Source: a virus. From it: a stretch of DNA of 60,539 bases. A model generated the notes under the pieces. That model searched no databases and was not told the origin of the DNA. It was given only the letters and a program-made list of their open reading frames with translations. The stretch covers positions 1-60,539 of IMG/VR virus record IMGVR_UViG_3300028048_000007; one strand, written 5' to 3'. Of this stretch, positions 4,376 to 60,539 are shown piece after piece. Position 1 is the stretch's first letter. Every line of letters starts with the position of its first letter. Both the position numbers and the translations under genes were made by a program.

Positions 4376-5722
4376 TTACCTACCTCTAATACTATTATTC
4401 TTTCTCTCCTTAACATCAGCTACATAATAATCATCAAGTGCATACCATATAGCGGAAAGGGTGTGAGGGTCGATGTTAAACTCACTGTACTTTAAACTTC
4501 CATCGGGATTCTTTTTGTAACTCAAATCCCTACACTCACGAATAGTATTATGGCAATTGCTACTACAAATAATTCGCTTAAAGCGTTTTATCTTTTTGGT
4601 ATTTGCAATTCTACTTCCTTCTGTTTTCTTATCGCACTTCTTTAAACAAGGTCGCATTTGGAAACCCTGTTTACGATAATACTTGATTGTTTTAGGCTCT
4701 GCACAATCTGCACGAATAACTTCATCCTTAATACCTTTATCCCACTTTTGAAGTGCAATAGCGGTTTCATCATCGGTCATATGATTTCGGTAATACTCAT
4801 CATAAATGTATAACCATTTGTTAACATCATCAACTGCAACTTTAAGCACAGCATTGTAACTTGTTTCAAAACCGAAATCCATACCGACTCTATGGAAATT
4901 AGCAGGTACATTAAGTACAGCCTTATCAACCAATTTAGCAGACATAACTTCAAATTGAGGAAGTACACGAAGTCCAGTAGCACCGAACTGTCCTAATCTT
5001 GCAACAACCCAAAGTTCTTTATCATATGTTTTCATTTCATCCAAACGTCTTATATAAGCAGGTGGTAAGAATTGGTTATCATCACAAGTGCTATGGTGAT
5101 AGTAAACTCCGTTCTTCACCAATACTTTCTTCTTATACAAAACTTCGGGTTTAACAATAATGGTAGTATTTCCATCACTGTCAGTGTTCTCAAAGAACTG
5201 TTGGTAAACCCAGTTATTTTTACTTATAGGGTTACAGGTAAGTATGAAGTGCATACTGATACCATTTGTACGAATACGCCCTAATATTTCCAAGTAAGCA
5301 TCGAGGGAAACTTCTGAACATTCCTCTATCCATACAATACTTACACCGTTTAACGACTTTAGTTTTTCGGTACTATCCATACCTTTGAAGATTATTCTAC
5401 TTCCATTAGGAAATTTGAATTCAAGTGGAGCATTTTTAAAACACACTTTGGTCTTATGTTGTCTTACACCAACATCTGCAAGCAACCCCATGTCATCCAA
5501 AACCTGTTTAATTAAGTCGAATGTACTCTCTTTGTGTGTGTCGTATACATCTCTGAATACACACGCCTTTCTTTTCTCTGCAAACAGTTTCAGAATTATC
5601 TTTTGAACCGTACTGTGTGATTTACTACTACCATATCCACCAATTACCAAATACTTTTCATAATCCCAATCGAAGATGTAATTATCAAAAGCAGGATTGA
5701 TACACATTGTTGCTTTCGGCAT
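4376..5722 (-). CDS. terL: Terminase large subunit (PBSX/Terminase_3-like)
   Basis: Walker A GGYGSSKSH, Walker B IVWIEECSE, C-terminal nuclease region (GMDFGFE). Start moved to MPKATM (ATG 5720-5722) behind AAGGAGAGAG. Confidence 0.9.
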   Translation of the reverse strand: MPKATMCINPAFDNYIFDWDYEKYLVIGGYGSSKSHSTVQKIILKLFAEKRKACVFRDVYDTHKESTFDLIKQVLDDMGLLADVGVRQHKTKVCFKNAPLEFKFPNGSRIIFKGMDSTEKLKSLNGVSIVWIEECSEVSLDAYLEILGRIRTNGISMHFILTCNPISKNNWVYQQFFENTDSDGNTTIIVKPEVLYKKKVLVKNGVYYHHSTCDDNQFLPPAYIRRLDEMKTYDKELWVVARLGQFGATGLRVLPQFEVMSAKLVDKAVLNVPANFHRVGMDFGFETSYNAVLKVAVDDVNKWLYIYDEYYRNHMTDDETAIALQKWDKGIKDEVIRADCAEPKTIKYYRKQGFQMRPCLKKCDKKTEGSRIANTKKIKRFKRIICSSNCHNTIRECRDLSYKKNPDGSLKYSEFNIDPHTLSAIWYALDDYYVADVKERKNNSIRGR

Positions 5723-5753
5723 TTTACTCTCTCCTTTTTTATATAATAGCAAA

Positions 5754-5783
5754 ACAAGCCATCGACTTCTGCCGATAACTTGT
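5754..5783 (-). promoter_or_regulatory. Hairpin in the terL leader (AACAAG..ATCG / CGAT..CTTGTT, then TTTTG on the coding strand); attenuator/terminator-like
   Basis: Read by eye; lies between the 5861-5888 promoter and the terL RBS. Confidence 0.35.
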
Positions 5784-5860
5784 TGCCTATAACTTTTAAC
5801 TTTTTACAAGGGAATCTTTACAATAGAATATATTTGAATAGAATACTTCCGACATATACA

Positions 5861-5888
5861 ATTATACCATATATATAATATAAGTCAA
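5861..5888 (-). promoter_or_regulatory. Sigma-A-type promoter for terL (-35 TTGACT, 16-nt spacer, -10 TATAAT)
   Basis: Reverse complement of 5861-5888 reads TTGACTtatattatatatatggTATAAT. Confidence 0.55.
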
Positions 5889-6129
5889 CAAACATTCTAT
5901 TCATATATAATACATTTCGATACATAAAATCATTTTTGAATTTTACTTTTTCTTTTATATATTTTCTTTTTATATATTATATATATTTATATATACATAT
6001 AACATACATATTACTGATATACAGCGAAAAGCGGATAAAAATTTTTAGTAAATGGAAGTGAGTAGCGTTCAAAGTGTTTTTAATGCACTTCAAAACATTC
6101 TACTCAATCTTCCATATTCTTACTAATTG

Positions 6130-6804
6130 TTACTCTTCACTTTCATCATCTTCCCAGTTATCCCAAAGTTCACTTTCTTCATCACTTAATTCATCTGAAT
6201 CATCACCACTTTGTTCTAACTGCTCTTTTGTGTATGTTACAGATTTGTTTATTACATCACCGTTTTCATCGTAAATTTCAACGTTCTCATCTTCATCGGT
6301 AACTTCTTCATCTTCATCGTAGATATCAATTTTCTGTTTATTTCCTCTTTGTATAGTAATAGTAACTTGACTATCATCGGGGTCAACTTCAACAATTTTA
6401 TCTCTATTAAGTTTCCAATCTTCAAATTTTCTGTTATTAAGCCAGAACATTGCGGCTTTGACATTCGGTGGAACTTCTTTTACGGTTGTTTCTTTCAACA
6501 TCTCAACCATTTCACCATTTACCATTTTCTTTCCTATGGTAACCTTAATCTCTTTCGTTTTATATCCTAATGCCGCTTTTAAAATAGCATTTTCAACTTG
6601 ATAATCTACAAGTTCTCTTGTTGTATTAATTGCTTCATCTATTTCAGCATATTTCTTTTGCCATTTTACGAGAGTGTTTACATTTATATTCATACGCTTT
6701 GCAATTTCTGCTTTACTAAATGTATCTCTCGACCAACTTCTTATTAATTCAAGTCCATCTTCTGTAAGCCAATAATCGACTTTACTTTCATTTATGTTTC
6801 CCAT
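6130..6804 (-). CDS. terS: Terminase small subunit (N-terminal HTH) with a strongly acidic C-terminal tail (..ELWDNWEDDESEE)
   Basis: 224-aa ORF. The segment ..TFSKAEIAKRMNINVNTLVKWQKKYAEIDEAI.. is typical of terS HTH domains; position upstream of terL. Confidence 0.7.
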   Translation of the reverse strand: MGNINESKVDYWLTEDGLELIRSWSRDTFSKAEIAKRMNINVNTLVKWQKKYAEIDEAINTTRELVDYQVENAILKAALGYKTKEIKVTIGKKMVNGEMVEMLKETTVKEVPPNVKAAMFWLNNRKFEDWKLNRDKIVEVDPDDSQVTITIQRGNKQKIDIYDEDEEVTDEDENVEIYDENGDVINKSVTYTKEQLEQSGDDSDELSDEESELWDNWEDDESEE

Positions 6805-6953
6805 GACAAATAAAACCTCCTATGTTCAAATTCAAATCAGAAAACAAAAAATTTTGATATGCTTTTTTCAATTTTTATATCAATATGCCATACCCTTTTA
6901 AATAGTGGTGGCTCACAATGAATCAGTTTAATTCAAATTGCTGTGGTTAACGT

Positions 6954-7035
6954 TCACTTTGCTATGCTTTCATTCACTTCATTTCACATCACTTCTCATC
7001 TCACTCACGCTCACAGCACTTTGAATGACGCTCAC
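6954..7035. repeat. Phased TCAC(T) repeats upstream of terS (candidate terS-binding / pac-type region)
   Basis: TCAC at 6954, 6974, 6984, 6989, 7001, 7005, 7011 and 7032, i.e. largely on a ~10-bp register. Confidence 0.4.
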
Positions 7036-7253
7036 TTCAAATGGCTTTATATATGAAATGGGTGGAGGATTTCTGGGAGAGTAGTAGCGCACAAAAATTA
7101 AATAGCACCCATTATGATTGCCTATCCCCCACACACCTGTTATTATTTCATGCGTTATATATCGGGTGTTATTGTGGGGATTTGATAACAGATTTTATTT
7201 TTTATCGAGAGGCTGGCAACGTACCTATTCAATCACACTTATTATTTATTTTA

Positions 7254-7426: not shown

Positions 7427-7497
7427 GCCCCATATTTACATTTTATACTTTTAATGTATTTCTATACACTTATTATATTTCGGTGCAAATATGGGGC
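7427..7497 (-). repeat. 14-bp inverted repeat (GCCCCATATTTgCA / TGtAAATATGGGGC, one G.U on the coding strand) with a 43-nt loop, just downstream of 7509..7988
   Basis: Read by eye; no T-run follows, so not a classical terminator. Confidence 0.5.
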
Positions 7498-7508
7498 GTT
7501 TATGGTCT

Positions 7509-7988
7509 TTATTCATACCATTTATTAATATAATGGTTAATACTTGTATTTGCGAAAATAGTCTTTTTTGATAACGTGTTATAAGGATATATAAGGGCGA
7601 AAATATCATATAGATTATTAATGATAGTTTCTATATCATGTCTACAATTTGACATTGTATAGAAACAATATTCGGTATCATGAAAAGTTTCACCCATTGC
7701 ATTTATATAATCCGCTTTTTTCCAAGTATCAATACAAGCATGATAACGAATATATTTTCCATTTGGTTTGCACTCATATACAATCTTTTCAAGTGCTGTT
7801 ATAAGCTGATTAAGAATACTTTCATCTGATACTTTTTTATCTTTAGTTTTTGCGATTAAGTGATTAATACTCATATCAAATAATATTTTGCTGTTTTTAC
7901 GGTCATTTTTATAAAACAGTATATATGCACCGTTTGACTGGTAGGGCGTGTTATAAGTGTCTTTGTACAGGTTTCTATTTTCCGTCAT
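7509..7988 (-). CDS. Hypothetical protein (159 aa)
   Basis: ORF track; last gene of the early direction before the terS control region. Confidence 0.65.
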   Translation of the reverse strand: MTENRNLYKDTYNTPYQSNGAYILFYKNDRKNSKILFDMSINHLIAKTKDKKVSDESILNQLITALEKIVYECKPNGKYIRYHACIDTWKKADYINAMGETFHDTEYCFYTMSNCRHDIETIINNLYDIFALIYPYNTLSKKTIFANTSINHYINKWYE

Positions 7989-8439: not shown

Positions 8440-8619
8440 TCAACTCCGCTTTTCTACTACTCCGTTATTGTATCTGTATTCGTGACCGTTAACTTCAAAT
8501 AATACGTAGTTTCCGTTTCCATCACCCTCTAACAAAACTATGTCTTTTAAAGGTGCGGTAAAACCGTATTCATTTTTTAATACTATTTGTGCTAACTGTT
8601 TGAACTCTGTTTTTGTCAT
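8440..8619 (-). CDS. Small hypothetical protein (59 aa)
   Basis: Hand translation MTKTEFKQLAQIVLKNEYGF..; ATG 8617-8619 sits 8 nt after GGAGG; first gene behind the 8661-8689 promoter. Confidence 0.55.
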   Translation of the reverse strand: MTKTEFKQLAQIVLKNEYGFTAPLKDIVLLEGDGNGNYVLFEVNGHEYRYNNGVVEKRS

Positions 8620-8660
8620 GTTTAAAACCTCCGTTTAGTGTGGTTTGTTTTGTTGTGCTA

Positions 8661-8689
8661 ACTATATCAAATATATTTGTTGATTGCAA
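8661..8689 (-). promoter_or_regulatory. Sigma-A-type promoter (-35 TTGCAA, 17 nt, -10 TATAGT) with an AAAATATTTT UP-like tract
   Basis: Reverse complement reads TTGCAAtcaacaaatatatttgaTATAGT; member of the conserved promoter family. Confidence 0.6.
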
Positions 8690-9167
8690 CAACTTTTTAA
8701 AATATTTTTCAAAAATCTTTTTCTATTTTCCATTATTAGGAAGAAACGCACACAAAACAGATAAACACGGCATTTTTACATATATTGTTTAATATTGCAC
8801 AACGAAAATAATAAAACGTTGGTTAAGATATACAAAAACAATGATTTACAATAGATTTTTTCAAAATTTACAAAATATTAAAAGTTTGTTCGGTTTTGTC
8901 ATACCCTACAAACCGCATGGTTAAGCGATTTTGCCCATTAAGGGTCGAACAAAGACTTTTTCGATAAAGTTATCATTAAAAGGGTAAAATTCAAATTTGG
9001 GGCGTTTTTGAGCGTTTTAAGGGCATATCTAAAATGTCAAGAAAAATCGTAAAATTGACATATAGAAAAAATATCATTGTTTTTGGTTATTTTTAACAAG
9101 TGGTATTTTCTGGCACTTAAAACAGCTTATTTACAGAAAATAGATTAAATTGTTTTCAATTTGTTTT

Positions 9168-9234
9168 AATTGTGTAAAAATTTAAGTTTTTCCGTTCTCT
9201 GGTATTTTCGGGATATTTAAATTTTTACACAATT
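9168..9234. repeat. Perfect 18-bp inverted repeat AATTGTGTAAAAATTTAA / TTAAATTTTTACACAATT with a 31-nt spacer
   Basis: Arms 9168-9185 and 9217-9234 are exact reverse complements. Confidence 0.9.
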
Positions 9235-9367
9235 AATCAAATTGACTATACAATTCTCAAATATTGCTATTTTCCGTTTCTGGCATCCGATAAAATAAAA
9301 TATTTGCTGTTATGTTATTTTCTATCCCTGTTTTTAATAACAAACGGTATTTTATCGGGCATCCTGT

Positions 9368-9384
9368 AAATTGTCAGACAATTT
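9368..9384. promoter_or_regulatory. 17-bp palindrome AAATTGTC-A-GACAATTT (operator-like); same core as 14909-14923 and 15010-15024
   Basis: Self-complementary by inspection. Related half-sites ATTGTCAGA at 9400-9408 and 9460-9468, and ATTGTC at 9471-9476. Confidence 0.6.
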
Positions 9385-9403
9385 GCTCATTTTCGTTAAA
9401 TTG

Positions 9404-9417
9404 TCAGAATATTCTGA
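9404..9417. promoter_or_regulatory. 14-bp perfect palindrome TCAGAATATTCTGA overlapping an ATTGTCAGA half-site
   Basis: Self-complementary by inspection. Region 2 has the near-identical TCTGAATATTCTGA at 15035-15048. Confidence 0.5.
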
Positions 9418-9476
9418 AAACTCGGTGAATTGTACTCATTTTCACACACAATTATGCGAATTGTCAGAAAATTGTC

Positions 9477-9510
9477 GGGGCGGTCGGCGTGGGCGGTCGG
9501 GCGGCATCCG
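9477..9510. other. Isolated GC-rich island (GGGGCGGTCGGCGTGGGCGGTCGGGCGGCATCCG) containing GCGGTCGG twice
   Basis: Stands out by eye in an otherwise AT-rich non-coding region. Confidence 0.8.
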
Positions 9511-9753
9511 TTCTTCCTACGTACTTTCTTTTTACGTTGTTTCTGTATTCGCATTATGTCATATTCGCATTATGTCGTATAACGCTCAAATTCGGCTCAT
9601 TTTCGCATTTTGTACCATTAATGGTATATTTATATACCTACACAATAAAAACGCCATTTTGAGGCAAATTTGAGCGTTTTACGTATGCTTTATTACATAG
9701 ATATATAAATACAGCATTATTTATATACTTTTCATCGTTCCTGTACTGTTTTT

Positions 9754-9894
9754 AGTGTAGTAGGAAGAATTTTTAGTAGTAGGATGAATTTTGAAAAGTA
9801 GTAGGAGAAATTTTTCGTAGTAGACGGAATTTTGCACAGTAGGAGGAATTTTGAGTAGTAGAAGGAAAATTAAAGAGTAGTAAAAGGAATTTTT
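9754..9894. repeat. Tandem array of 7 imperfect 16-22-bp repeats, consensus AGTAGTAGGAGGAATTTT (iteron-like; every unit keeps a GGA core)
   Basis: Units start at 9754, 9775, 9797, 9817, 9838, 9854 and 9876. Confidence 0.9.
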
Positions 9895-9912
9895 AACATA
9901 TCCCAGAAACAA

Positions 9913-9940
9913 GGAAAAACGGCATTTACTGCCGTTTTCC
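9913..9940 (-). terminator. Rho-independent terminator after 9962..10384 (GGAAAACGGCA-gtaaa-TGCCGTTTTTCC, then T-rich)
   Basis: 11-bp GC-containing stem with one bulged A, followed by TTGTTTC on the coding strand. Confidence 0.75.
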
Positions 9941-9961
9941 TATTGGTATCTGTATTTACTT

Positions 9962-10384
9962 TTACTTTCTCTTTTTGTTGTGATTTTCCTTATAATACTT
10001 CATAGATTCGGGATAAAACAGATTGATTATATCTCCCAAACCTGCATTGAGAAATACCGCATATTTAATCATCTTTTCAATGTTAGGATTCTGTTTTCCC
10101 TGTAATACCTTTGTGGTATTTGCTATATCATCTCCAATAGCCTGTGCAAACTCTGATACAGTGTTATAACCGTATGCTTTCAGAAAATCTTTTCTTACTT
10201 CATACACTTTATCGGGAATTGCCTTTTTAACCGTCTTATTTGCCGTTTTAACAGGCTTTACGTTCTTTTTGGTACTTTTTACCGCTGTTGTCTTCTTTGT
10301 AGGCTTCTTGACCGTTTTAGCGGCTTTTACAGACTTATTTGCAGTTACCTTCTTTGTATTCTTTGTATTTGCTGTTTTTCTCAT
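9962..10384 (-). CDS. DNA-binding protein: Lys-rich histone-H1-like N-terminal repeats plus a C-terminal XRE-like HTH
   Basis: 140 aa. KKVTANKSVKAAKTVKKPTKKTTAVKSTKKNVKPVKTANKTVKKA, then ..VSEFAQAIGDDIANTTKVLQGKQNPNIEKMIKYAVFL.. Confidence 0.65.
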   Translation of the reverse strand: MRKTANTKNTKKVTANKSVKAAKTVKKPTKKTTAVKSTKKNVKPVKTANKTVKKAIPDKVYEVRKDFLKAYGYNTVSEFAQAIGDDIANTTKVLQGKQNPNIEKMIKYAVFLNAGLGDIINLFYPESMKYYKENHNKKRK

Positions 10385-10431: not shown

Positions 10432-11037
10432 TTAGCTTATTTCTGTTCTAACGTAGTTTACAAGTGCATATTCCAAACTACAACGAAAAACTGGATTATC
10501 TCTCAATTCTTTACAGTTTCTTACTATTGCAAGTTTAACTAAATCTAACTTTTCCGCTACTTCATCAAAAACCTGTTTACTAGCACTTATCTGTTTTTCG
10601 TAGTTCTCAATGTATTTCTTTTGCTTTTCTTTTTCTGATTCTATCTTTTCGATAATTTCATCAGTATTGAGTAAATAAGTTGTTCTCCAGAAACCTTCAC
10701 TACTTTTTAAATCCTTTATTCTTTCATCTTCTGGATTTTTAGCTTTCATGTCATCTACATACATATAAGCATCGAATTCGTAAGTGTTAAAATTTCCGTC
10801 ACTTGTGTATCCAGAAACTTGAAAAGTAGGATGATTATAATCGTTATATGATTTAATTATAATCTTTCCATTTACAAAAGTCTGGTTTTTGTTCTGAAAA
10901 TGCGTTCCGTCTTTCTTACGCTTTATTTCTACTTTTTCAAGTAATTCCAGATTGTTTTTATGATATTTTAAATCATCATTTAACTTTCTTACTATTTCTT
11001 CATAACCTTTTGTTACTTCAAAACTACAACTTGACAT
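10432..11037 (-). CDS. Hypothetical protein (201 aa), coiled-coil C-terminal half
   Basis: ORF track. Confidence 0.65.
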   Translation of the reverse strand: MSSCSFEVTKGYEEIVRKLNDDLKYHKNNLELLEKVEIKRKKDGTHFQNKNQTFVNGKIIIKSYNDYNHPTFQVSGYTSDGNFNTYEFDAYMYVDDMKAKNPEDERIKDLKSSEGFWRTTYLLNTDEIIEKIESEKEKQKKYIENYEKQISASKQVFDEVAEKLDLVKLAIVRNCKELRDNPVFRCSLEYALVNYVRTEIS

Positions 11038-12743: not shown

Positions 12744-12772
12744 AATATATCATACTATTTTGTTACTGTCAA
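12744..12772 (-). promoter_or_regulatory. Sigma-A-type promoter, family consensus copy (-35 TTGACA, 17 nt, -10 TATATT)
   Basis: Reverse complement reads TTGACAgtaacaaaatagtatgaTATATT, preceded by an A/T UP-like tract. Confidence 0.7.
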
Positions 12773-12791
12773 CAACTTTTTTTTATTTTTT

Positions 12792-13257: not shown

Positions 13258-13286
13258 AATATATCATAGCGTTTTGTTGTTGTCAA
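13258..13286 (-). promoter_or_regulatory. Sigma-A-type promoter, family consensus copy (-35 TTGACA, 17 nt, -10 TATATT)
   Basis: Reverse complement reads TTGACAacaacaaaacgctatgaTATATT, preceded by AAAAATATTTTTAAAAAAG. Confidence 0.7.
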
Positions 13287-13429
13287 CTACTTTTTTAAAA
13301 ATATTTTTTATTTTTATTTTCCCTCTTTTTATCGGTCTTTGTTGTTCTTCCGTCACACGGTTTTACTCTTGTATTTTCTCCGCACACTTTAAAATAAATG
13401 CATCCTTTACAGGGATTTTTTACACTCAT

Positions 13430-14596: not shown

Positions 14597-14684
14597 TTTG
14601 TCAACCTCTTTTCAATATTTTGTTTTCAATGTGCGGTTTGCAATTCTACCACCAACAACCTGTTAATGATACCTTGCAAGTATC

Positions 14685-14713
14685 ATATTACACCCACCTG
14701 TTGTTATTGTCAA
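14685..14713 (-). promoter_or_regulatory. Sigma-A-type promoter (-35 TTGACA, 17 nt, -10 TAATAT)
   Basis: Reverse complement reads TTGACAataacaacaggtgggtgTAATAT, with an A/T-rich UP-like tract at 14714-14750. Confidence 0.7.
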
Positions 14714-14908
14714 CAACTATTTTAAAAAATTTTCAAAAAGTTTTTTTCACGGAAATAAAATCTTGACATTGTATATCACAACAAAAGAAAATGCAACTTA
14801 AAATTTTCACCAAATTTTTCATTGGTTATTGTCAACTTTCCCATGTCTGACAATTTACAAATTTTTCGGTTTCTGTATTGACAATGGATTGAATTTTCTG
14901 ATAATCAG

Positions 14909-14923
14909 AATTGTCTGACAATT
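14909..14923. promoter_or_regulatory. 15-bp palindrome AATTGTC-T-GACAATT (operator-like), directly downstream of a plus-strand TTGACA/GATAAT promoter-like pair (14878-14905)
   Basis: Self-complementary by inspection. Confidence 0.6.
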
Positions 14924-15009
14924 AAATGTTATTTTACCGATTTTGGGATGGTTTTTAGACAATTTAAAAGAAACATGTGTGATTCATACACAACTCCGAA
15001 AGCTGTCTG

Positions 15010-15024
15010 AATTGTCTGACAATT
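15010..15024. promoter_or_regulatory. 15-bp palindrome AATTGTC-T-GACAATT (second exact copy in region 2)
   Basis: Self-complementary. Flanked by half-sites GTCTGA (15005-15010), GTCTGAATATTCTGACAATT (15034-15053), plus 14845-14855 and 14957-14964. Confidence 0.6.
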
Positions 15025-15190
15025 TGGTGAGTTGTCTGAATATTCTGACAATTCTGAAAATTCGGATTCGGTTTTGTACCCCATATACGTATACGCATAC
15101 ACACGTACATACGTACTTACTTATTTACTATATTATTTCGCATTATGTATACGCCACCACACGGTACACGTTACATGTGTTACACTCAAC

Positions 15191-15310
15191 AAATAAATAG
15201 AAAGTACATTCTGCGGATAAATTGATGTGATAAATACCAAAGGGGATTCTTTGTCATGGCAAAAACAAAGTGATTATTATGTTCTCACAGAATGTACTCT
15301 CTATTTATTT
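15191..15310. repeat. Long inverted repeat: 23-bp arms (22/23 complementary) around a 74-nt spacer; candidate structured RNA or cruciform
   Basis: 15191-15213 AAATAAATAGAaAGTACATTCTG versus 15288-15310 CAGAATGTACTcTCTATTTATTT. The spacer holds a small CTTTG..CAAAG hairpin. Confidence 0.85.
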
Positions 15311-15347
15311 ATTGTAATGCTTTTGTATTGTTCCACCAAGCTAATAC

Positions 15348-15400
15348 AGTAGTAGGAGGAATTTTGAGTAGTGGGAGTTTTTAGTAGTAAGAGGATTTTA
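15348..15400. repeat. Tandem array of 3 repeats of the same AGTAGTAGGAGGAATTTT family as 9754-9894
   Basis: AGTAGTAGGAGGAATTTTG / AGTAGTGGGAGTTTTT / AGTAGTAAGAGGATTTTA. Confidence 0.85.
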
Positions 15401-15420
15401 AACCATATAAATAAAACAAT

Positions 15421-15505
15421 GGGGAGATAGCCTTATTATTACCGATAAACGGTTACAAGGACTTACGCTCTCCCCAGATGAGGAAGGTGGGGTAAGTCAC
15501 CTTCC
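15421..15505 (-). terminator. Two consecutive hairpins after 15505..15846: GGAAGGTG-n8-CACCTTCC (15482-15505, includes the TAG stop) and GGGGAGA..TCTCCCC (15421-15475), then a T-rich run
   Basis: Read by eye; ATTGTTTTATTT follows the second stem on the coding strand. Confidence 0.65.
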
Positions 15506-27797: not shown

Positions 27798-27832
27798 TTT
27801 AAACTCCTTTTAGGCTTGTTTATTATTACGAA

Positions 27833-27904
27833 CAACCCCTGTAGGACTCGAACCTACAATAATCAGAACCAAAATCTGATGCCTTACCATTTGGCGAAGG
27901 GGCT
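27833..27904 (-). tRNA. tRNA-Gln (anticodon UUG)
   Basis: Hand fold: acceptor AGCCCCT/AGGGGTT (one G.U), D arm GCC-AAATGGTAA-GGC, anticodon arm TCAGA-TTTTGGT-TCTGA, T arm GTAGG-TTCGAGT-CCTAC, discriminator G, no encoded CCA. Confidence 0.85.
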
Positions 27905-27929
27905 ATAAGGGAGATTGCTCCCCCTATTG

Positions 27930-31488: not shown

Positions 31489-33045
31489 TTAATTTACCTC
31501 TCTACATAATAAAGTGCTGTTATATTTCGTTACTCTACTTATGTATTCCTTTTTATCGAATGTAGCCGCACCACATTCTTTTAACTTTGATAACACACCA
31601 ATGTTTACTGCACTTCCTTTAAAGTGTGTTCTATCGTAGAAATTATCATATGAAGTAAATATACCGTTCTTCTTTCTTTCTTCTACAATTTGAAGTGCCG
31701 CTTTTTCACCGATACCTTTTATATCAGAAAGACCTTGTTGTAAACAATATTCTCCTTCAACCTTTCTTATTCTTGTTTTAACATCAGAATAATTTATATG
31801 AGGAAGAAATACAACGTTTCCTGCTTTTGCCGCTAACACGCAACACTTATAATAAGTATCGTCATTTGGTGCATACTTTAATTTACCAAACCAGAAATGC
31901 AACGGATAATGTACCTTGTAAAACATTTCCTCTACAGCAAGTAGTGCATAACCAACTGCATGACCTTTGTTAAAACCATACATGTCGGTTGCTGAACTAA
32001 ATATCTGCTCCGCTTCATCTCGTTTAAAACCATTTGACATAGCACCCTTTACAAATATGTCATGAAGTTCTTTCTTTGTCTGATTAAACTTCTCACGCTT
32101 CTCTGGTGACATTGCTTTTGAACCATCCATTTTCATAACCTTATCTGCATCTGTCCATTCCATACCACCAAGATAAACACATATCTGTTGTACTTGCTCT
32201 TGATAAATAATTGTTCCGTATGTTTCTTTTGTATAATCATAATACAATAATTCTTTTGCAGTTTCGATATTGCTCTTATTATCTGCGTACTGTTCGGGCA
32301 TGTGTGTTGATAATGCGGCAGGTCTATTCATTGCATTTGCGGCTACAACATCATTGAAGTCTGTACAGTTAATATCAACCAACATGTTTCTAACAGTTTT
32401 CTTATCAAACTGAAATACGCCTTGCGTATCTCCTTTATGAAATGCTTCAAGCACATCTTTATCTTCAATTGCTTTGTCATAGTCAACAGTTACACCTGTA
32501 AGTTCTCTTAACTCACCAATCTCTTCCATTGTTTGAAGTCCAAGAATGTCAAACTTGATAACTCCAATTGCTTCAATGTCATTCAAATCATAATTGGTGT
32601 AAACGTTTCCTTCTTTATCCATTTTCAAAGCTGTATAATCAAGTATATCTCCACCTGTTACAGCAACACCTGCGGCATGTGTACCAATATATCTTACTTT
32701 CTGATACAACTTACTAAAATGAATAAATATGTTATCATACTCTTTGTTATACATCTGAATCTCTTTGTCTTCCAACATTGCATCCAAATCCAAATTGGAA
32801 TCAGAATCAAGATATTTATTACAAAGTGATTTAATCTGTTTTATTGTTCTTTCATTACTTGCTTTCTGTTCACCATCAACAGTTTTATCAGTAGGCAATC
32901 CACAAACCTTTGCTAAATCATTTATAAGGTTGTCTACTTTATACAGACCATAAGAAACTATTCTTGCTGTATGTCCTTCATATTTATTTATGATATACTC
33001 GATTACTTCATGTCTTCTTGCTGTTTCAAAATCAAGGTCAATATC
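31489..33045 (-). CDS. dnaE: DNA polymerase III alpha subunit (DnaE-type), exon 2
   Basis: Begins DIDLDFETARRHEVIEYI.. (the catalytic Asp motif) and continues with ..GTHAAGVAV.., ..KFDILGLQT.. The ATG listed at 33046-33048 is interpreted as the last intron codon (ends in G). Confidence 0.8.
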   Translation of the reverse strand, partial: DIDLDFETARRHEVIEYIINKYEGHTARIVSYGLYKVDNLINDLAKVCGLPTDKTVDGEQKASNERTIKQIKSLCNKYLDSDSNLDLDAMLEDKEIQMYNKEYDNIFIHFSKLYQKVRYIGTHAAGVAVTGGDILDYTALKMDKEGNVYTNYDLNDIEAIGVIKFDILGLQTMEEIGELRELTGVTVDYDKAIEDKDVLEAFHKGDTQGVFQFDKKTVRNMLVDINCTDFNDVVAANAMNRPAALSTHMPEQYADNKSNIETAKELLYYDYTKETYGTIIYQEQVQQICVYLGGMEWTDADKVMKMDGSKAMSPEKREKFNQTKKELHDIFVKGAMSNGFKRDEAEQIFSSATDMYGFNKGHAVGYALLAVEEMFYKVHYPLHFWFGKLKYAPNDDTYYKCCVLAAKAGNVVFLPHINYSDVKTRIRKVEGEYCLQQGLSDIKGIGEKAALQIVEERKKNGIFTSYDNFYDRTHFKGSAVNIGVLSKLKECGAATFDKKEYISRVTKYNSTLLCREVN

Positions 33046-33820
33046 CATTCATACCCTCGGTTTCCCGATATTTATTAGGGGATTAGACTATCTCTTACAG
33101 AATCAAATTCTGTTGTGGCACTTCCGCTGTGTGCTTATCTCACAGCGTACTTCCTTACGGAATAGTCGTTACATTTTTCGCAATTCAACTTCTTTGTTTT
33201 TGTAATGTTTAACAAGCATAGAATAACTACAACCATATTTCTTTGAAGCATACTTACTTGCATCTGTTACGCTCCAAAAAGAATTAATAAATTCACCTTT
33301 GTAATACAAATCAATAACATTATAATTTCTAAAAGGTGTATCTTTTCTTCGTTCATAACCTTTATTAATGTTATCTTTTTGTGTTACCCAACGGAGATTT
33401 TTATAATAGTTATTCTCTTTATTTCCGTCAATGTGGTCAACAACAAGTTCTTCTTCATAGCCTTCACAAAACAACATAGCAACCGCCCTGTGAATTGCAA
33501 TTCTTTTCACTACACCTTCATCAGAACACTTAATATACAAATATCCTTGGTTACTTTTGTAAGGTGTCAAATTTCTTCCTGTTTTCTTGTTGTAAACATC
33601 ACCACATTCATTAACGCAAATGTTTTTAAAATTTGGAATTACCTTAAACATACAAAAACTCCTTGCGACTTAACTCGGTATTACCAACTATCCATTTCTG
33701 GACTTTAGGTTTTCTTACGAAGCGTATTCGTGCATATAGCCTTATTTAACTTCTACCGATAGCATAGCATTACGCTACACACCTGTTAGCACAGTTCACC
33801 ACATACGCCCAATATTGTTT
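33046..33820 (-). mobile_element. Group I intron (775 nt) in dnaE carrying an HNH homing-endonuclease ORF
   Basis: Exon 1 ends ..FRRFLRKDKKKLP (last nt U) and exon 2 starts DIDLDF; joined they parallel E. coli FERFLNPERVSMPDFDVDF. Intron ends in G. GGGCG at intron nt 12-16 can pair with exon UGCCU (U.G at the splice site). GUAA-tetraloop hairpins in both non-coding flanks. Confidence 0.75.
33169..33651 (-). CDS. HNH homing endonuclease (HNH_3 type), intron-encoded
   Basis: ..HRAVAMLF..VVDHIDGNKENNYYKNLRWVTQKDNINKG.. Confidence 0.85.
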   Translation of the reverse strand: MFKVIPNFKNICVNECGDVYNKKTGRNLTPYKSNQGYLYIKCSDEGVVKRIAIHRAVAMLFCEGYEEELVVDHIDGNKENNYYKNLRWVTQKDNINKGYERRKDTPFRNYNVIDLYYKGEFINSFWSVTDASKYASKKYGCSYSMLVKHYKNKEVELRKM

Positions 33821-35002
33821 AGGCAACTTCTTCTTATCTTTTCTTAAGAATCTACGGAAGTCCATACCGAACATTAAACTGTCTATTTCGGTTATTCCCA
33901 ACGCATAAGCAACAAGACAGTTACAACAACTACCTCTGCCAGGACCAACTGTAATTCCCTGTTCCTTTGCCCAGTTTACGTAGTCTGCAACAATAAGGAA
34001 GTAATCATGAAAACCAAGGGTTTCAATTACATCATATTCCTGTTTAATACGGTCTATATATTCTTTCTTCCACTTACCTCTTCTTTCAAGACCTTCTTTT
34101 ATCTGTTTCTTTAATAGTGACTTACTATCCTTTGAATACTTGGGTAAGATTTCTTCAAAGTCAGCAAACATATCATCAACACATTTATCTTCAATCTCTT
34201 TTAAGTTTCTGATACATTGTTTACCGAATTTCTTGCACATCTCTTCTGTCTTAAAATCAACAGAGTGCATGTTAACAAATCGTGTGTAAAGTTCTTTGTC
34301 TGTAGGCATATATCTTTCTTTATATGTCCTTGCAATTTCATCTACATCATGATTTGCTATTTCGTGCATCTTTAAATAAGATTCAAAATCATCTTTCCTA
34401 CCTCTATGAGAATCAGAAGTAAGAATACATTTAATACCAAGTTCTCTTGACAATTCAATCAGAGTTTTATTTACAAGTTGCTGTAAACCTTTTTCAGAAA
34501 CTTTATAAGGCTGTAATTCTATATAAAAGTCATCAGCAAAAATGCTTTTCATTTTCTTTAAATATTTTCTTGCTTTATCTATGTCACCCTTAACAATACA
34601 TTGTGAACTGTAAGAAGCAACACAAGCAGAAGTAACAATCAAACCCTCATGGAACTTTTCTAACAACTCAAATGTCCAAATAGGATTGTAATACTTCTGT
34701 TTTTCTCCCTCTGTCTGTAAAGCATTTAAGTTGTGATAGCCTTTTGGATTCTTTGCAAACACACACAAATGATAACCTCTGTGCTGTTCAATATATTTTG
34801 GTAAGAAATAACCTTCAACTCCCAATATTGGTTTTATTCCAACTTCCATACATGCTTTGTAATGCTGTACCAAGTTGTTTGTATTTCCGTGGTCGGATAT
34901 ACCTAAAGCGGTATGACCTAACTCTTTTGCTAATTTTGCCAACTCTTTAGGTTTACCAAAACCATCATACGTACTACATTCTGTATGTCGGTGTAAATCC
35001 AT
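33821..35002 (-). CDS. dnaE: DNA polymerase III alpha subunit (DnaE-type), exon 1 (PHP domain and start of the palm)
   Basis: MDLHRHTECSTYDGFG..LGISDHGN..GVEGYF.. PHP motifs. The 16 codons after ..KKKLP in the ORF track are read as intron. Confidence 0.8.
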
Positions 35003-59684: not shown

Positions 59685-60539
59685 TTAAACAATTACGATT
59701 TCCTGTCCGACATAAATTTTATTCTTATTTGGAATATTGTTTGCCTTAACAAGTGCATCAACCGTTGTATTATATCTCTTTGCTATTGAAGAAAGAGTTT
59801 CATTATGAATAACAACGTGAGTCTTTTTGGTTTGTTTTCTTTGATTTACAATCTCATTAACTCTTGCCTGTACTTGTTTTGCATCATATCCACTTGCATT
59901 TAATCTAATGGCTCTTATTGGATTGTTGCCCCACACTCCTGCAAGAACCTCAATGGCTAACTGGTCTACAGACTTCTTTATTACAGTAGGAACTACTACA
60001 GGTTCTTGTGCAATTTGAACCTCATCACCCCAAAGGATATAGAAAAAGTCTTGGTCTATTGTAGTTCCATTTATTTTAGAACTTCTCACATAATTTACAG
60101 AACCTCCATATTGCCAACATTCGCAACTAAAACTTGGAGGATTCTTTGAGTATTTCGCAACCCAAAATGGAAATTTACTTACCTGTGATTTATCAAAACG
60201 TGATTTGAAATGACTCTCACTTGTATAAACACCACAGATATAACCTGCATTTACCATTGTTTGACAAAATGTTTTTATAATGTCAGTAAGATGCGTATAA
60301 CCTTGGTTAAGCATTTTTCCTTCAACATCATAATAAACATGCTTTATTGCTTTTCCTTTAAGGTACTCAATAAAATAATTTGCTTCTTTAACTGCATCAG
60401 CAGTAGAAAAGGCACAACCAAAATAATACGCTCCAATTTTCCACGCACCTGCTCTTGCTTGTGTATAGAAATTTTCAAACTGTGAATCTTTGTAATAACT
60501 TCCGTCTGCTCCACCTGCTTTAATTATACAGTGAGTAAA
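59685..60539 (-). CDS. Endolysin, 3' portion: rest of the GH25 muramidase, one Cpl-7 (CW_7) repeat and a C-terminal LysM (continues upstream at 754..1 through the circular junction)
   Basis: ORF stays open from 60314 to the window end (..GAYYFGCAFSTADAVKEANYFIEYL..). ..TIDQDFF.. ends GH25. ..SVDQLAIEVLAGVWGNNPIRAIRLNASGYDAKQVQARVNEIV.. is CW_7-like. ..HVVIHNETLSSIAKRYNTTVDALVKANNI..VGQEIVI is LysM. Confidence 0.85.
   Translation of the reverse strand, partial: FTHCIIKAGGADGSYYKDSQFENFYTQARAGAWKIGAYYFGCAFSTADAVKEANYFIEYLKGKAIKHVYYDVEGKMLNQGYTHLTDIIKTFCQTMVNAGYICGVYTSESHFKSRFDKSQVSKFPFWVAKYSKNPPSFSCECWQYGGSVNYVRSSKINGTTIDQDFFYILWGDEVQIAQEPVVVPTVIKKSVDQLAIEVLAGVWGNNPIRAIRLNASGYDAKQVQARVNEIVNQRKQTKKTHVVIHNETLSSIAKRYNTTVDALVKANNIPNKNKIYVGQEIVIV
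60413..60539. repeat. Second copy of the 127-bp terminal overlap (identical to 1-127)
   Basis: 127/127 identical. Confidence 0.95.

Follow-up and report, generated by a model that had tools for sequence, protein, structure and literature searches.

Phage genomes seldom contain large non-coding regions, and in metagenomic phages such regions mostly go without annotation. The origins of lambda (ori), P1, F, R6K and RK2 carry several same-orientation repeats of 17-22 bp beside an AT-rich segment and bent DNA, and plasmid iterons are typically phased at 21-22 bp. In the phage SPP1, two origins lie ~13 kb apart, each combining direct repeats with an AT-rich unwinding element; one of them (oriR) occupies one of the longest intergenic regions, with transcription signals on both sides, and the whole genome is transcribed from one purine-rich strand (PMC6316719). 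In T5, Repeat Region 3 comprises 1.2 kb of untranslated DNA with nine direct repeats (DRD) and many palindromes in conserved order, and a second repeat region a few kb away shares elements with it, the two flanking the pre-early genes (bioRxiv 10.1101/866236). Here we describe an interval that belongs in kind with these phage intergenic origin/control regions: control region 1 (CR1), at 8620-9961 of the IMG/VR virus record IMGVR_UViG_3300028048_000007 (positions 1 to 60,539; these 60,539 nucleotides are called the window throughout). CR1 does not code for protein; it is a DNA hub of many sites that fills the space from the early operon's end to the following host-type promoter, where the early genes meet the terminase/late genes. 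We tentatively read it as a module resembling an iteron-type origin to which an operator/promoter control region is joined, a reading that we hold to be possible rather than probable.

All credible genes of the window are on the minus strand, and the minus-strand direction is called gene orientation throughout. CR1 contains no conserved open reading frame (ORF): those of at least 30 aa are either short or on the antisense strand, most of them with TTG or GTG as start codon, the largest being 100 aa long with a TTG start on the antisense strand (9371-9673), and their likeness to ORFs of relatives only follows conserved operator DNA. Since these ORFs are unconserved and track the operators, CR1 is truly non-coding, as an earlier interpretation made from the letters of the window (the sequence-only reading) had proposed on seeing no credible ORF there; a conserved protein-coding gene was also looked for in the relatives, and none was found. 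CR1 is likewise neither a structured conserved RNA nor a known RNA family. Rfam 15 covariance models gave no match in CR1 or in the second hub (CR2) at gathering score, their sole such match in the window being a tRNA-Gln (27832-27905), and a search by E-value returned nothing above about one third of the own family's gathering score. ARAGORN found no tRNA in either hub of the window, and RNAalifold, applied to both strands of the conserved blocks B, C, D and F, gave weak energies (only -14 to -16 kcal/mol over 290 nt for block F) and predicted only the AT-rich palindrome and the terminator, in folds with one or two compensatory pairs and almost no covariation.

The evidence for function comes from relatives, which were found through homologues of the gene just upstream of CR1, of the small terminase subunit gene terS and of a 201-aa protein encoded upstream; blocks were defined and compared in an 11-sequence alignment (A4; window 8580-9990). 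A gene-free interval of 1.3-1.6 kb lies at the same place in at least ten related metagenomic phages, mostly from rumen-type samples (L001, L026, L028, L029, L030, L032, L034 and L053; in part L031, L033 and L036), and is laid out as a terminator (block A), iterons (B), block C (~170-200 nt), a variable slot, blocks D, E and F, and a promoter (G). Identity to the window is 0.61-0.76 in block B, 0.66-0.84 in C, 0.66-1.0 in D and 0.66-0.87 in F, against 0.49-0.58 at the third codon positions of the adjacent gene in most relatives; in the variable slot and block E it is 0.09-0.5 (0.09-0.41 for the variable slot except in L031). Because blocks B, C, D and F exceed the neighbour's third codon positions in conservation, they are under purifying selection. 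This synteny and block conservation, the co-variation with CR2, the adjacent XRE-type gene and the low-stability segment by the iterons argue strongly that CR1 is a functional cis-acting DNA region.

Beyond the closer relatives, the layout is retained in part. CR1 of L053 has no helix-turn-helix (HTH) gene beside it, yet it holds eight iterons (core TCTCCGTCTACTAC), three boxes, a trace of block F and the promoter. In L005, whose terS is 48% identical, a 0.9-kb hub carries eight TAAAWTCTCC units of 13-14 bp, and 3.8 kb upstream lies another hub with TCTCCTACTA units; L009 has a block C-like element directly upstream of terS; the distant relatives L023 and L024 were uninformative for CR1. Wider scans added little: an iteron-pair scan of IMG/VR recovered only one relative, already known, and a block C pattern scan of 185,579 species genomes gave 14 matches, none with other CR1 motifs, which are chance matches and not prophage or host copies. 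Two relatives differ from the window in opposite ways. L031 matches it fully in block D and at 97% in the variable slot but at only 71% in the upstream gene; in L029 it is the upstream gene that is close (92% identity) and the variable slot that differs (29%). These opposite patterns place a recombination breakpoint within the hub, and CR1 is thus also a recombination junction.

All ten elements listed by the sequence-only reading are present in CR1, where it had placed them or within a few bases (Table 1), and together they form at least four short-repeat families in fixed order: 19-bp iterons, ACATAATGCGAA boxes, AATTGTCAGA operators and AAAACGC/A-tract elements. For the iterons, Tandem Repeats Finder calls tandem repeats at 9757-9895 (period 19/41), and the pattern GTAGTAGGAGGAATTTT with at most three mismatches matches the genome nine times (seven in 9757-9893, two at 15349-15400), against a shuffle expectation of 0.27 and with nine matches reached in 0 of 100 shuffles, which bears out the seven tandem ~20-bp repeats described earlier at 9754-9894. 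Relatives have 7-8 iterons with a strict 19-bp period, a conserved 13-nt core and drifting A/T spacers. Block C also holds a palindrome, given as GGTATATTTATATACC / GGTATATAAATATACC, and three ATAATGCGAA boxes; the duplicated 12-nt element noticed earlier (9548, 9563) is TTCGCATTATGT, with a third variant at 9602. Every lineage, the distant L009 and L053 included, has the 11-mer AAATATACCAY a single time in its CR1, and the window as a whole has it a single time. In block D, AATTGTCAGA operator sites at 9369, 9399 and 9459, with 30-bp spacing and a palindrome at 9369-9383, confirm the palindrome and half-site cluster seen earlier at 9368-9478, and the palindrome TCAGAATATTCTGA is highly conserved in relatives, with at most one or two substitutions. 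Block E is variable, with extra half-sites. Block F contains A/T-tracts phased at ~10 bp (8986-9040), a palindrome GATAAAGTTATC (8963-8974) and the pair TTTGTTCG / CGAACAAA (8885-8953).

The two ends of CR1 were also recognised correctly at the outset. The terminator, an 11-pair hairpin on the minus strand (9940..9914), is of the intrinsic type, a G+C-rich hairpin followed by a T-run, and the hairpin is kept in all relatives (CAGGC...GCCTG in L034 versus CGGC...GCCG elsewhere); flanked by an A-tract and a T-tract, it may halt transcripts of the plus strand too. The predicted sigma-A promoter at 8661-8689, TTGCAA-17-TATAGT with an upstream TG, has its -35 and -10 elements 17 bp apart, and relatives have TTGACA at the same place. 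The reported AT-rich stretch is likewise real (21-35% GC over 8700-9300 versus ~33% for the genome). Other elements stand as sequence features of narrower distribution: the AT hairpin (9702-9727) is lineage-specific rather than general, the GC island (9477-9510) and the 11-bp inverted repeat (9287-9297 / 9348-9358) are shared with L031 only, and the "perfect 18-bp inverted repeat" (9168-9234) is indeed perfect but 20 bp long (9166-9236), its right arm alone being kept in some relatives. Except in L031, the variable slot is filled elsewhere by alternating purine-pyrimidine tracts or unrelated sequence. A G-quadruplex in the GC island was considered and rejected, since the island has only three runs of at least three G and hence no canonical quadruplex.

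Table 1. Features of CR1, CR2 and selected genes in the window
Feature	Position	Strand	Details
XRE/Cro-type HTH gene	9962-10384	-	Last early-operon gene; directly abuts CR1; Lys-rich tail
Block A, hairpin terminator	9913-9940	-	11 pairs, 5 of them G-C; closes early operon
Block B, seven iterons	9754-9894		Core TTCCTCCTACTAC (gene orientation) plus variable A/T spacer; period 19 or 22 bp
Least stable 50-bp duplex of CR1	9683-9732		Top 0.2% of genome windows; ~25 bp from last iteron
AT hairpin	9702-9727		Direct reading and self-inverted match; specific to the window's lineage
Block C	9547-9719		Near-invariant; 31-nt AT-rich inverted repeat 9619-9649 / 9689-9719 around central hairpin 9648-9683
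Candidate antisense promoter	9602-9630	+	-35 TTCGCA, 17-nt spacer, extended -10 TGgTATATT
Three TTCGCATTATGT-type boxes (ACATAATGCGAA in gene orientation)	9548, 9563, 9602		Span 9548-9613
GC island	9477-9510		GGGCGGTCGG twice; occupies variable slot
Block D, operator cluster	9364-9479		AATTGTCAGACAATT 9369-9383, TCAGAATATTCTGA 9404-9417, half-sites phased at 30 bp
11-bp inverted repeat	9287-9297 / 9348-9358		Direct reading; shared only with L031
Perfect 20-bp inverted repeat	9166-9185 / 9217-9236		31-bp loop; in poorly conserved block E
Block F	8832-9110		280 bp, conserved in sequence, unstructured; single copy per genome
Block G, predicted sigma-A promoter and A/T-rich upstream element	8661-8730	-	TTGCAA, 17 nt, TGaTATAGT (8689..8661)
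CR2	14597-15504		0.9-kb gene-free paralogue, 5.5 kb upstream of CR1
CR2 iterons	15349-15400		Three units (two matches in the pattern search with at most three mismatches)
CR2 long hairpin	~15188-15320		At the slot of a tRNA-like cloverleaf in relatives
CR2 box	15137		One ACATAATGCGAA box (TTCGCATTATGT type)
CR2 alternating purine-pyrimidine tract	15084-15118		33 nt
CR2 operators	14846-15062		~8 AATTGTCAGA sites
CR2 family promoter	~14685-14713		Same family as 8661-8689
terS	6130-6804	-	Annotation (PHROG/Pfam scans)
terL	4376-5752	-	Terminase_3/6N type

The sequence-only reading viewed CR1 in isolation; what it saw of CR1 holds, and the second, paralogous hub was missed. In gene orientation CR2 presents its parts in the same order as CR1, namely terminator, iterons, long hairpin, box, purine-pyrimidine tract, operators and family promoter, and CR2 of L053 likewise has iterons, three boxes, a long purine-pyrimidine tract and AATTGTCAGACAATT operators. 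Box and iteron variants shift in step between the two hubs of one genome; GCGAA ends the boxes of both window hubs, and ACGAA ends all six boxes of L053 (CR1 and CR2). This co-variation of motifs points to shared trans-acting factors, and both hubs are probably read by the same co-evolving, phage-encoded DNA-binding proteins.

Two further observations concern the hubs. Perfectly alternating purine-pyrimidine tracts, prone to form Z-DNA (for example TATACGTATACGCATACACACGTACATACGTAC and GTGCGTGTGTATGCGTGT), recur at the same hub slot in distant lineages (window 15084-15118, L026 CR2, L053 3540-3610, L005 7820-7845). CR2 of two relatives contains a tRNA-like cloverleaf of ~81 nt (L026 3537-3619, L028 5292-5375). 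Its acceptor stem has 7 bp, its T-loop is GTTCAAATC, the anticodon loop is oversized and the T stem bulged; ARAGORN calls it at relaxed settings only, as tRNA-His(atg).

How might such a hub work? The operators are natural targets for an XRE-type protein, so we read the hub as a composite of an origin-like module and a transcription control module. The origin module would have three parts: the seven iterons with their phasing, AT-rich palindromes next to them that melt easily, and block F, which is curved and conserved. An initiator would oligomerise on the iterons and then open the adjacent AT-rich DNA, and transcription from the conserved antisense extended -10 may assist this opening. CR2 would be a second, weaker origin-like site, or else a fork barrier or pairing partner (compare SPP1 oriR to oriL), and the two-origin layout of SPP1 is a precedent in favour of this reading. 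The XRE-type protein encoded next door probably binds the palindromic operators, which would couple early-gene shut-off to the same region. The repeats and the unwinding segment fit this scheme: the iterons are direct repeats of 17-22 bp in the same orientation, an AT-rich, easily unwound segment (9683-9732) lies next to them, and the 50-mer at the corresponding position is the least stable in five of eight related CR1s and the second least in one more. The antisense element at 9602-9630, a candidate promoter, is directed at the iterons and the terminator. Its spacer is fixed in length and variable in sequence across the alignment, and the TGGTATATT element (the extended -10) is also kept in L009 and L053.

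The sequence-only reading had taken iterons, an AT block and palindromes together as the anatomy of an origin; of the further marks of an origin that were looked for (an initiator or helicase gene, a DnaA-box cluster, a turning point in GC skew), none was found. The case for an origin draws on anatomy, we infer all of its functional steps, and several results weigh against it. PHROG and Pfam scans of the genome recovered no Rep, O, gp38 or DnaD-like initiator, helicase loader or replicative helicase, a negative limited by the many small ORFs that lack annotation, so that absence is not proven. There is no cluster of DnaA boxes (three loose TTWTNCACA matches in CR1, none in CR2), and cumulative GC skew, named earlier as a check, is monotonic, with no turning point marking an origin. 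The replication genes are 17-30 kb from CR1, the least stable DNA of the genome is elsewhere (5812-6050), and the 19-bp period is off the typical plasmid phasing. blastn, which like the Rfam cmsearch above had been suggested earlier as a check, found no match to CR1 among 50,697 phage records and 72,556 plasmids. L053 keeps the iterons but has no HTH gene. Finally, a 201-aa protein gene two genes upstream (10432-11037) is found beside CR1 in all relatives and has 32 homologues; its confident AlphaFold2 model (predicted local distance difference test score, pLDDT, 88.7) combines a beta-sheet domain with a 54-residue helix, and neither a PDB profile search nor Foldseek brought up a meaningful match. 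As a candidate initiator this protein thus has neither sequence nor fold match to support it.

The alternatives are not mutually exclusive with an origin-like role or with one another. The one that survives best, although we consider it unlikely, is that CR1 and CR2 are purely transcriptional hubs, insulators between operons without a replication role, in which arrays of regulator sites, including those for the XRE protein, silence or time the early promoters and switch to the late genes. A terminator and a family promoter bound each hub, CR1 lies where early genes give way to terminase/late genes, and the operators are palindromes of XRE-dimer type beside an XRE-type gene. Residues 60-135 of this HTH protein are modelled by AlphaFold2 with pLDDT above 90 as a five-helix, HTH_3-like fold, for which Foldseek returns SinR, 434 Cro, C.AhdI and ImmR (probability ~1, TM-score at most 0.78, E-values only 0.07-0.5); the Pfam HTH_26 match is below cutoff. 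The gene upstream of the hub in L005 was considered as a homologue of the HTH gene and is not homologous. A possible minus-strand promoter in block D (CTGACA, 18 nt, TGTGAAAAT) overlaps the operators, and each -35 region of the family promoters is palindromic in its own right (GTTGTTG..CAACAA at 8661-8689). A genetic switch of operators plus promoter, also proposed earlier, is, like an origin, compatible with the evidence. Against a purely transcriptional hub, the operators lie ~700 bp from the CR1 promoter, and L053 CR1 has no operators. Moreover, seven iterons, a 280-bp single-copy block and a 170-bp palindromic block far exceed the needs of known phage switches, and no further copy of block F stands at other operon starts.

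The promoters concerned deserve description in their own right. A 4.6-kb cassette of small genes, presumably the early region, lies between CR1 and CR2 and is driven by near-consensus host-type promoters. The family has four members (8661-8689, ~12744-12772, ~13258-13286 and ~14685-14713), and in each the -35 region is inside a GTTGTTGACAACAAC-type palindrome (8677-8693, 12760-12776, 13274-13290 and 14701-14717), which may act as an operator to shut the early promoters off.

Set against a composite of origin and control region, a role in DNA entry seems quite improbable to us: the hubs would be edges of the early block, serving as a T5-like injection stop or in end formation, or, in a variant, the limits of a long direct terminal repeat that assembly has collapsed. 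Two paralogous hubs do flank the small-gene cassette with its three near-consensus promoters, and T5 Repeat Region 3 is similarly repeat-rich and untranslated and shares elements with a second region (bioRxiv 10.1101/866236). The window is a circularly closed assembly with an exact 127-bp overlap (1-127 = 60413-60539), giving a 60,412-bp genome; this end overlap indicates a complete circular phage genome, but such an assembly would also mask a terminal repeat. A Logan assembly of the same phage has 60,431 nt. The contigs of L004 and L010, distant relatives from two assemblies, begin at the same base upstream of terS, but this may stem from one sample. In addition, close relatives' contig ends do not match either hub consistently, neither CR1 nor CR2 has paired DnaA boxes in inverted repeats as in T5, and TerL is of the Terminase_3/6N type, with the region 6805-7253 by terS a better candidate for the packaging site. 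An SPP1-type pac site, which overlaps the terS promoter or the 5' end of terS, was put aside for CR1 on the same ground: CR1 ends 1.8 kb upstream of terS and the terS-proximal region is favoured, so CR1 is probably not the packaging site.

A broader proposal is similarly a long shot, namely that the paired hubs form an undescribed class of cis-elements in Firmicutes-type siphoviruses, bracketing an early cassette and gating genome entry or the hand-over from early to replication/late functions. They would do so through shared phage DNA-binding proteins and possibly an antisense RNA with seven Shine-Dalgarno-like repeats, which would amount to a T5-like two-step programme in an unrelated lineage.

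That antisense RNA, taken as an explanation of its own, is no less doubtful. It would run from the TGGTATATT element (~9637) through seven GUAGUAGGAGGAAUUUU repeats to the bidirectional terminator and soak up ribosomes or an RNA-binding protein as a sponge. The conserved extended -10, the -35 TTCGCA and the fixed-length spacer of variable sequence argue for it, as do the T-tracts on both strands of the terminator (in L053 the antisense tract is the stronger), the purine-rich, Shine-Dalgarno-like repeat units on the plus strand, and the tRNA-like cloverleaf in relatives' CR2, by which a small-RNA gene is possible in at least one hub. However, there is no Rfam match, consensus folds are weak with almost no compensatory changes, and a strict 19-bp period with drifting spacers fits DNA-binding arrays better than known sponge RNAs. 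CR2 has iterons yet no such promoter, and a hairpin and T-run 10-45 nt past the putative start could end the transcript before the repeats. Last, a hidden protein-coding gene such as the 100-aa antisense ORF (9371-9673) is hardly credible and was rejected: TTG-start antisense ORFs of 60-141 aa recur at the same position in relatives, but their similarity is limited to translated operator DNA (LSEN/LSDN repeats) and breaks at the variable slot, whose length and sequence differ among relatives, while ORF lengths and ends vary and no ATG start is present.

The remainder of the genome places the hubs in context. GC content is ~33%, ribosome-binding sites are strong GGAGG and promoters are TTGACA/TATAAT, which together point to a host of Firmicutes type; for the same reasons the idea of Bacteroidetes-type promoters was dropped. 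No close isolate phage was found, the best TerL identity being below 60%. Annotated structural genes include portal, an SPP1 gp7-like head protein, major head protein, tape measure, Dit and Tal, and those for replication and recombination include a family-A DNA polymerase, a DnaG-type primase, RecA, a Cas4-like exonuclease, RNase H and resolvases. The polymerase is encoded in two ORFs (33770-35002 and 31489-33048), with an HNH endonuclease gene (33169-33651) between them.

Other non-coding regions lie around the terminase genes. Directly upstream of terS, the conserved region 6805-7253 (...CTCTCCCAGAAATCCTCCACCC...TTTCATATATA...), common to L026, L009 and L004 and containing a large hairpin in L026, is likely a pac site and/or late promoter. 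L004 and L010 (terS 60% identical) start in AT-rich non-coding DNA 1.37 kb upstream of terS, and their identical first base may mark a physical genome end or a single shared sample. The 377-bp gap between terS and terL (5753-6129) holds the genome's least stable DNA, with (TA)n runs, as well as a strong promoter-like site (TTGACT-16-TATAAT with TG, 5888-5861) and a 14-pair terminator-like hairpin (5784-5753). A further intergenic element at 7427-7510 (L026 13135-13230), with an 11-bp inverted repeat GCCCCATATTT / AAATATGGGGC and TAAACGCCCC motifs, weakly resembles CR1 block C (nhmmer E = 0.29).

CR1 and CR2 provide a cis-regulatory map for an uncultivated family of ~55-60-kb rumen/gut phages: two paralogous hubs, four repeat families and a co-variation that points to trans-acting factors. 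If the origin reading is true, the two-origin logic of SPP1 would extend to phages with their own polymerase, and origin fragments could serve in vectors or in resistance through replication interference; if one of the alternatives is true, it would point to a T5-like staged infection programme or a repeat RNA in Gram-positive phages.

Compared with known systems, CR1 shares features with several and matches none completely. (i) Cro/CI (XRE) switches likewise place several 14-15-bp palindromic sites beside a gene of XRE HTH fold. However, the sites here have 30-bp phasing, no strong promoter close by and a duplicate set in a second hub, the HTH protein has a histone H1-like Lys-rich tail, and neither a divergent repressor/cro gene pair nor an integrase was seen in this phage. 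(ii) T5 has proven 10-kb terminal repeats, paired DnaA boxes, a Gram-negative host and another terminase type, whereas the likeness lies in an untranslated region of ~1.2 kb that is more conserved than the neighbouring ORFs, with ordered repeats and palindromes and a partner region. (iii) Lambdoid and plasmid iteron origins resemble CR1 in their same-orientation repeats beside an AT-rich segment and bent DNA, and differ in period (19 bp here versus ~21-22 bp); CR1 also has no rep gene in cis, no DnaA boxes and no similarity to plasmids. (iv) SPP1 has its oriL inside the initiator gene 38, has known gp38, gp39 and gp40 proteins and uses host polymerases, whereas the present phage encodes PolA and a primase and has no recognisable gp38/39/40-like proteins; its hubs are larger (0.9-1.3 kb), add operator, box and curved-DNA blocks, and have no sequence similarity to those of SPP1. 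Nevertheless, both phages combine two repeat-built sites (origins in SPP1, putative ones here), a long intergenic location and transcription from one strand with head and terminase genes of similar type and a set of resolvase, exonuclease and recombinase genes.

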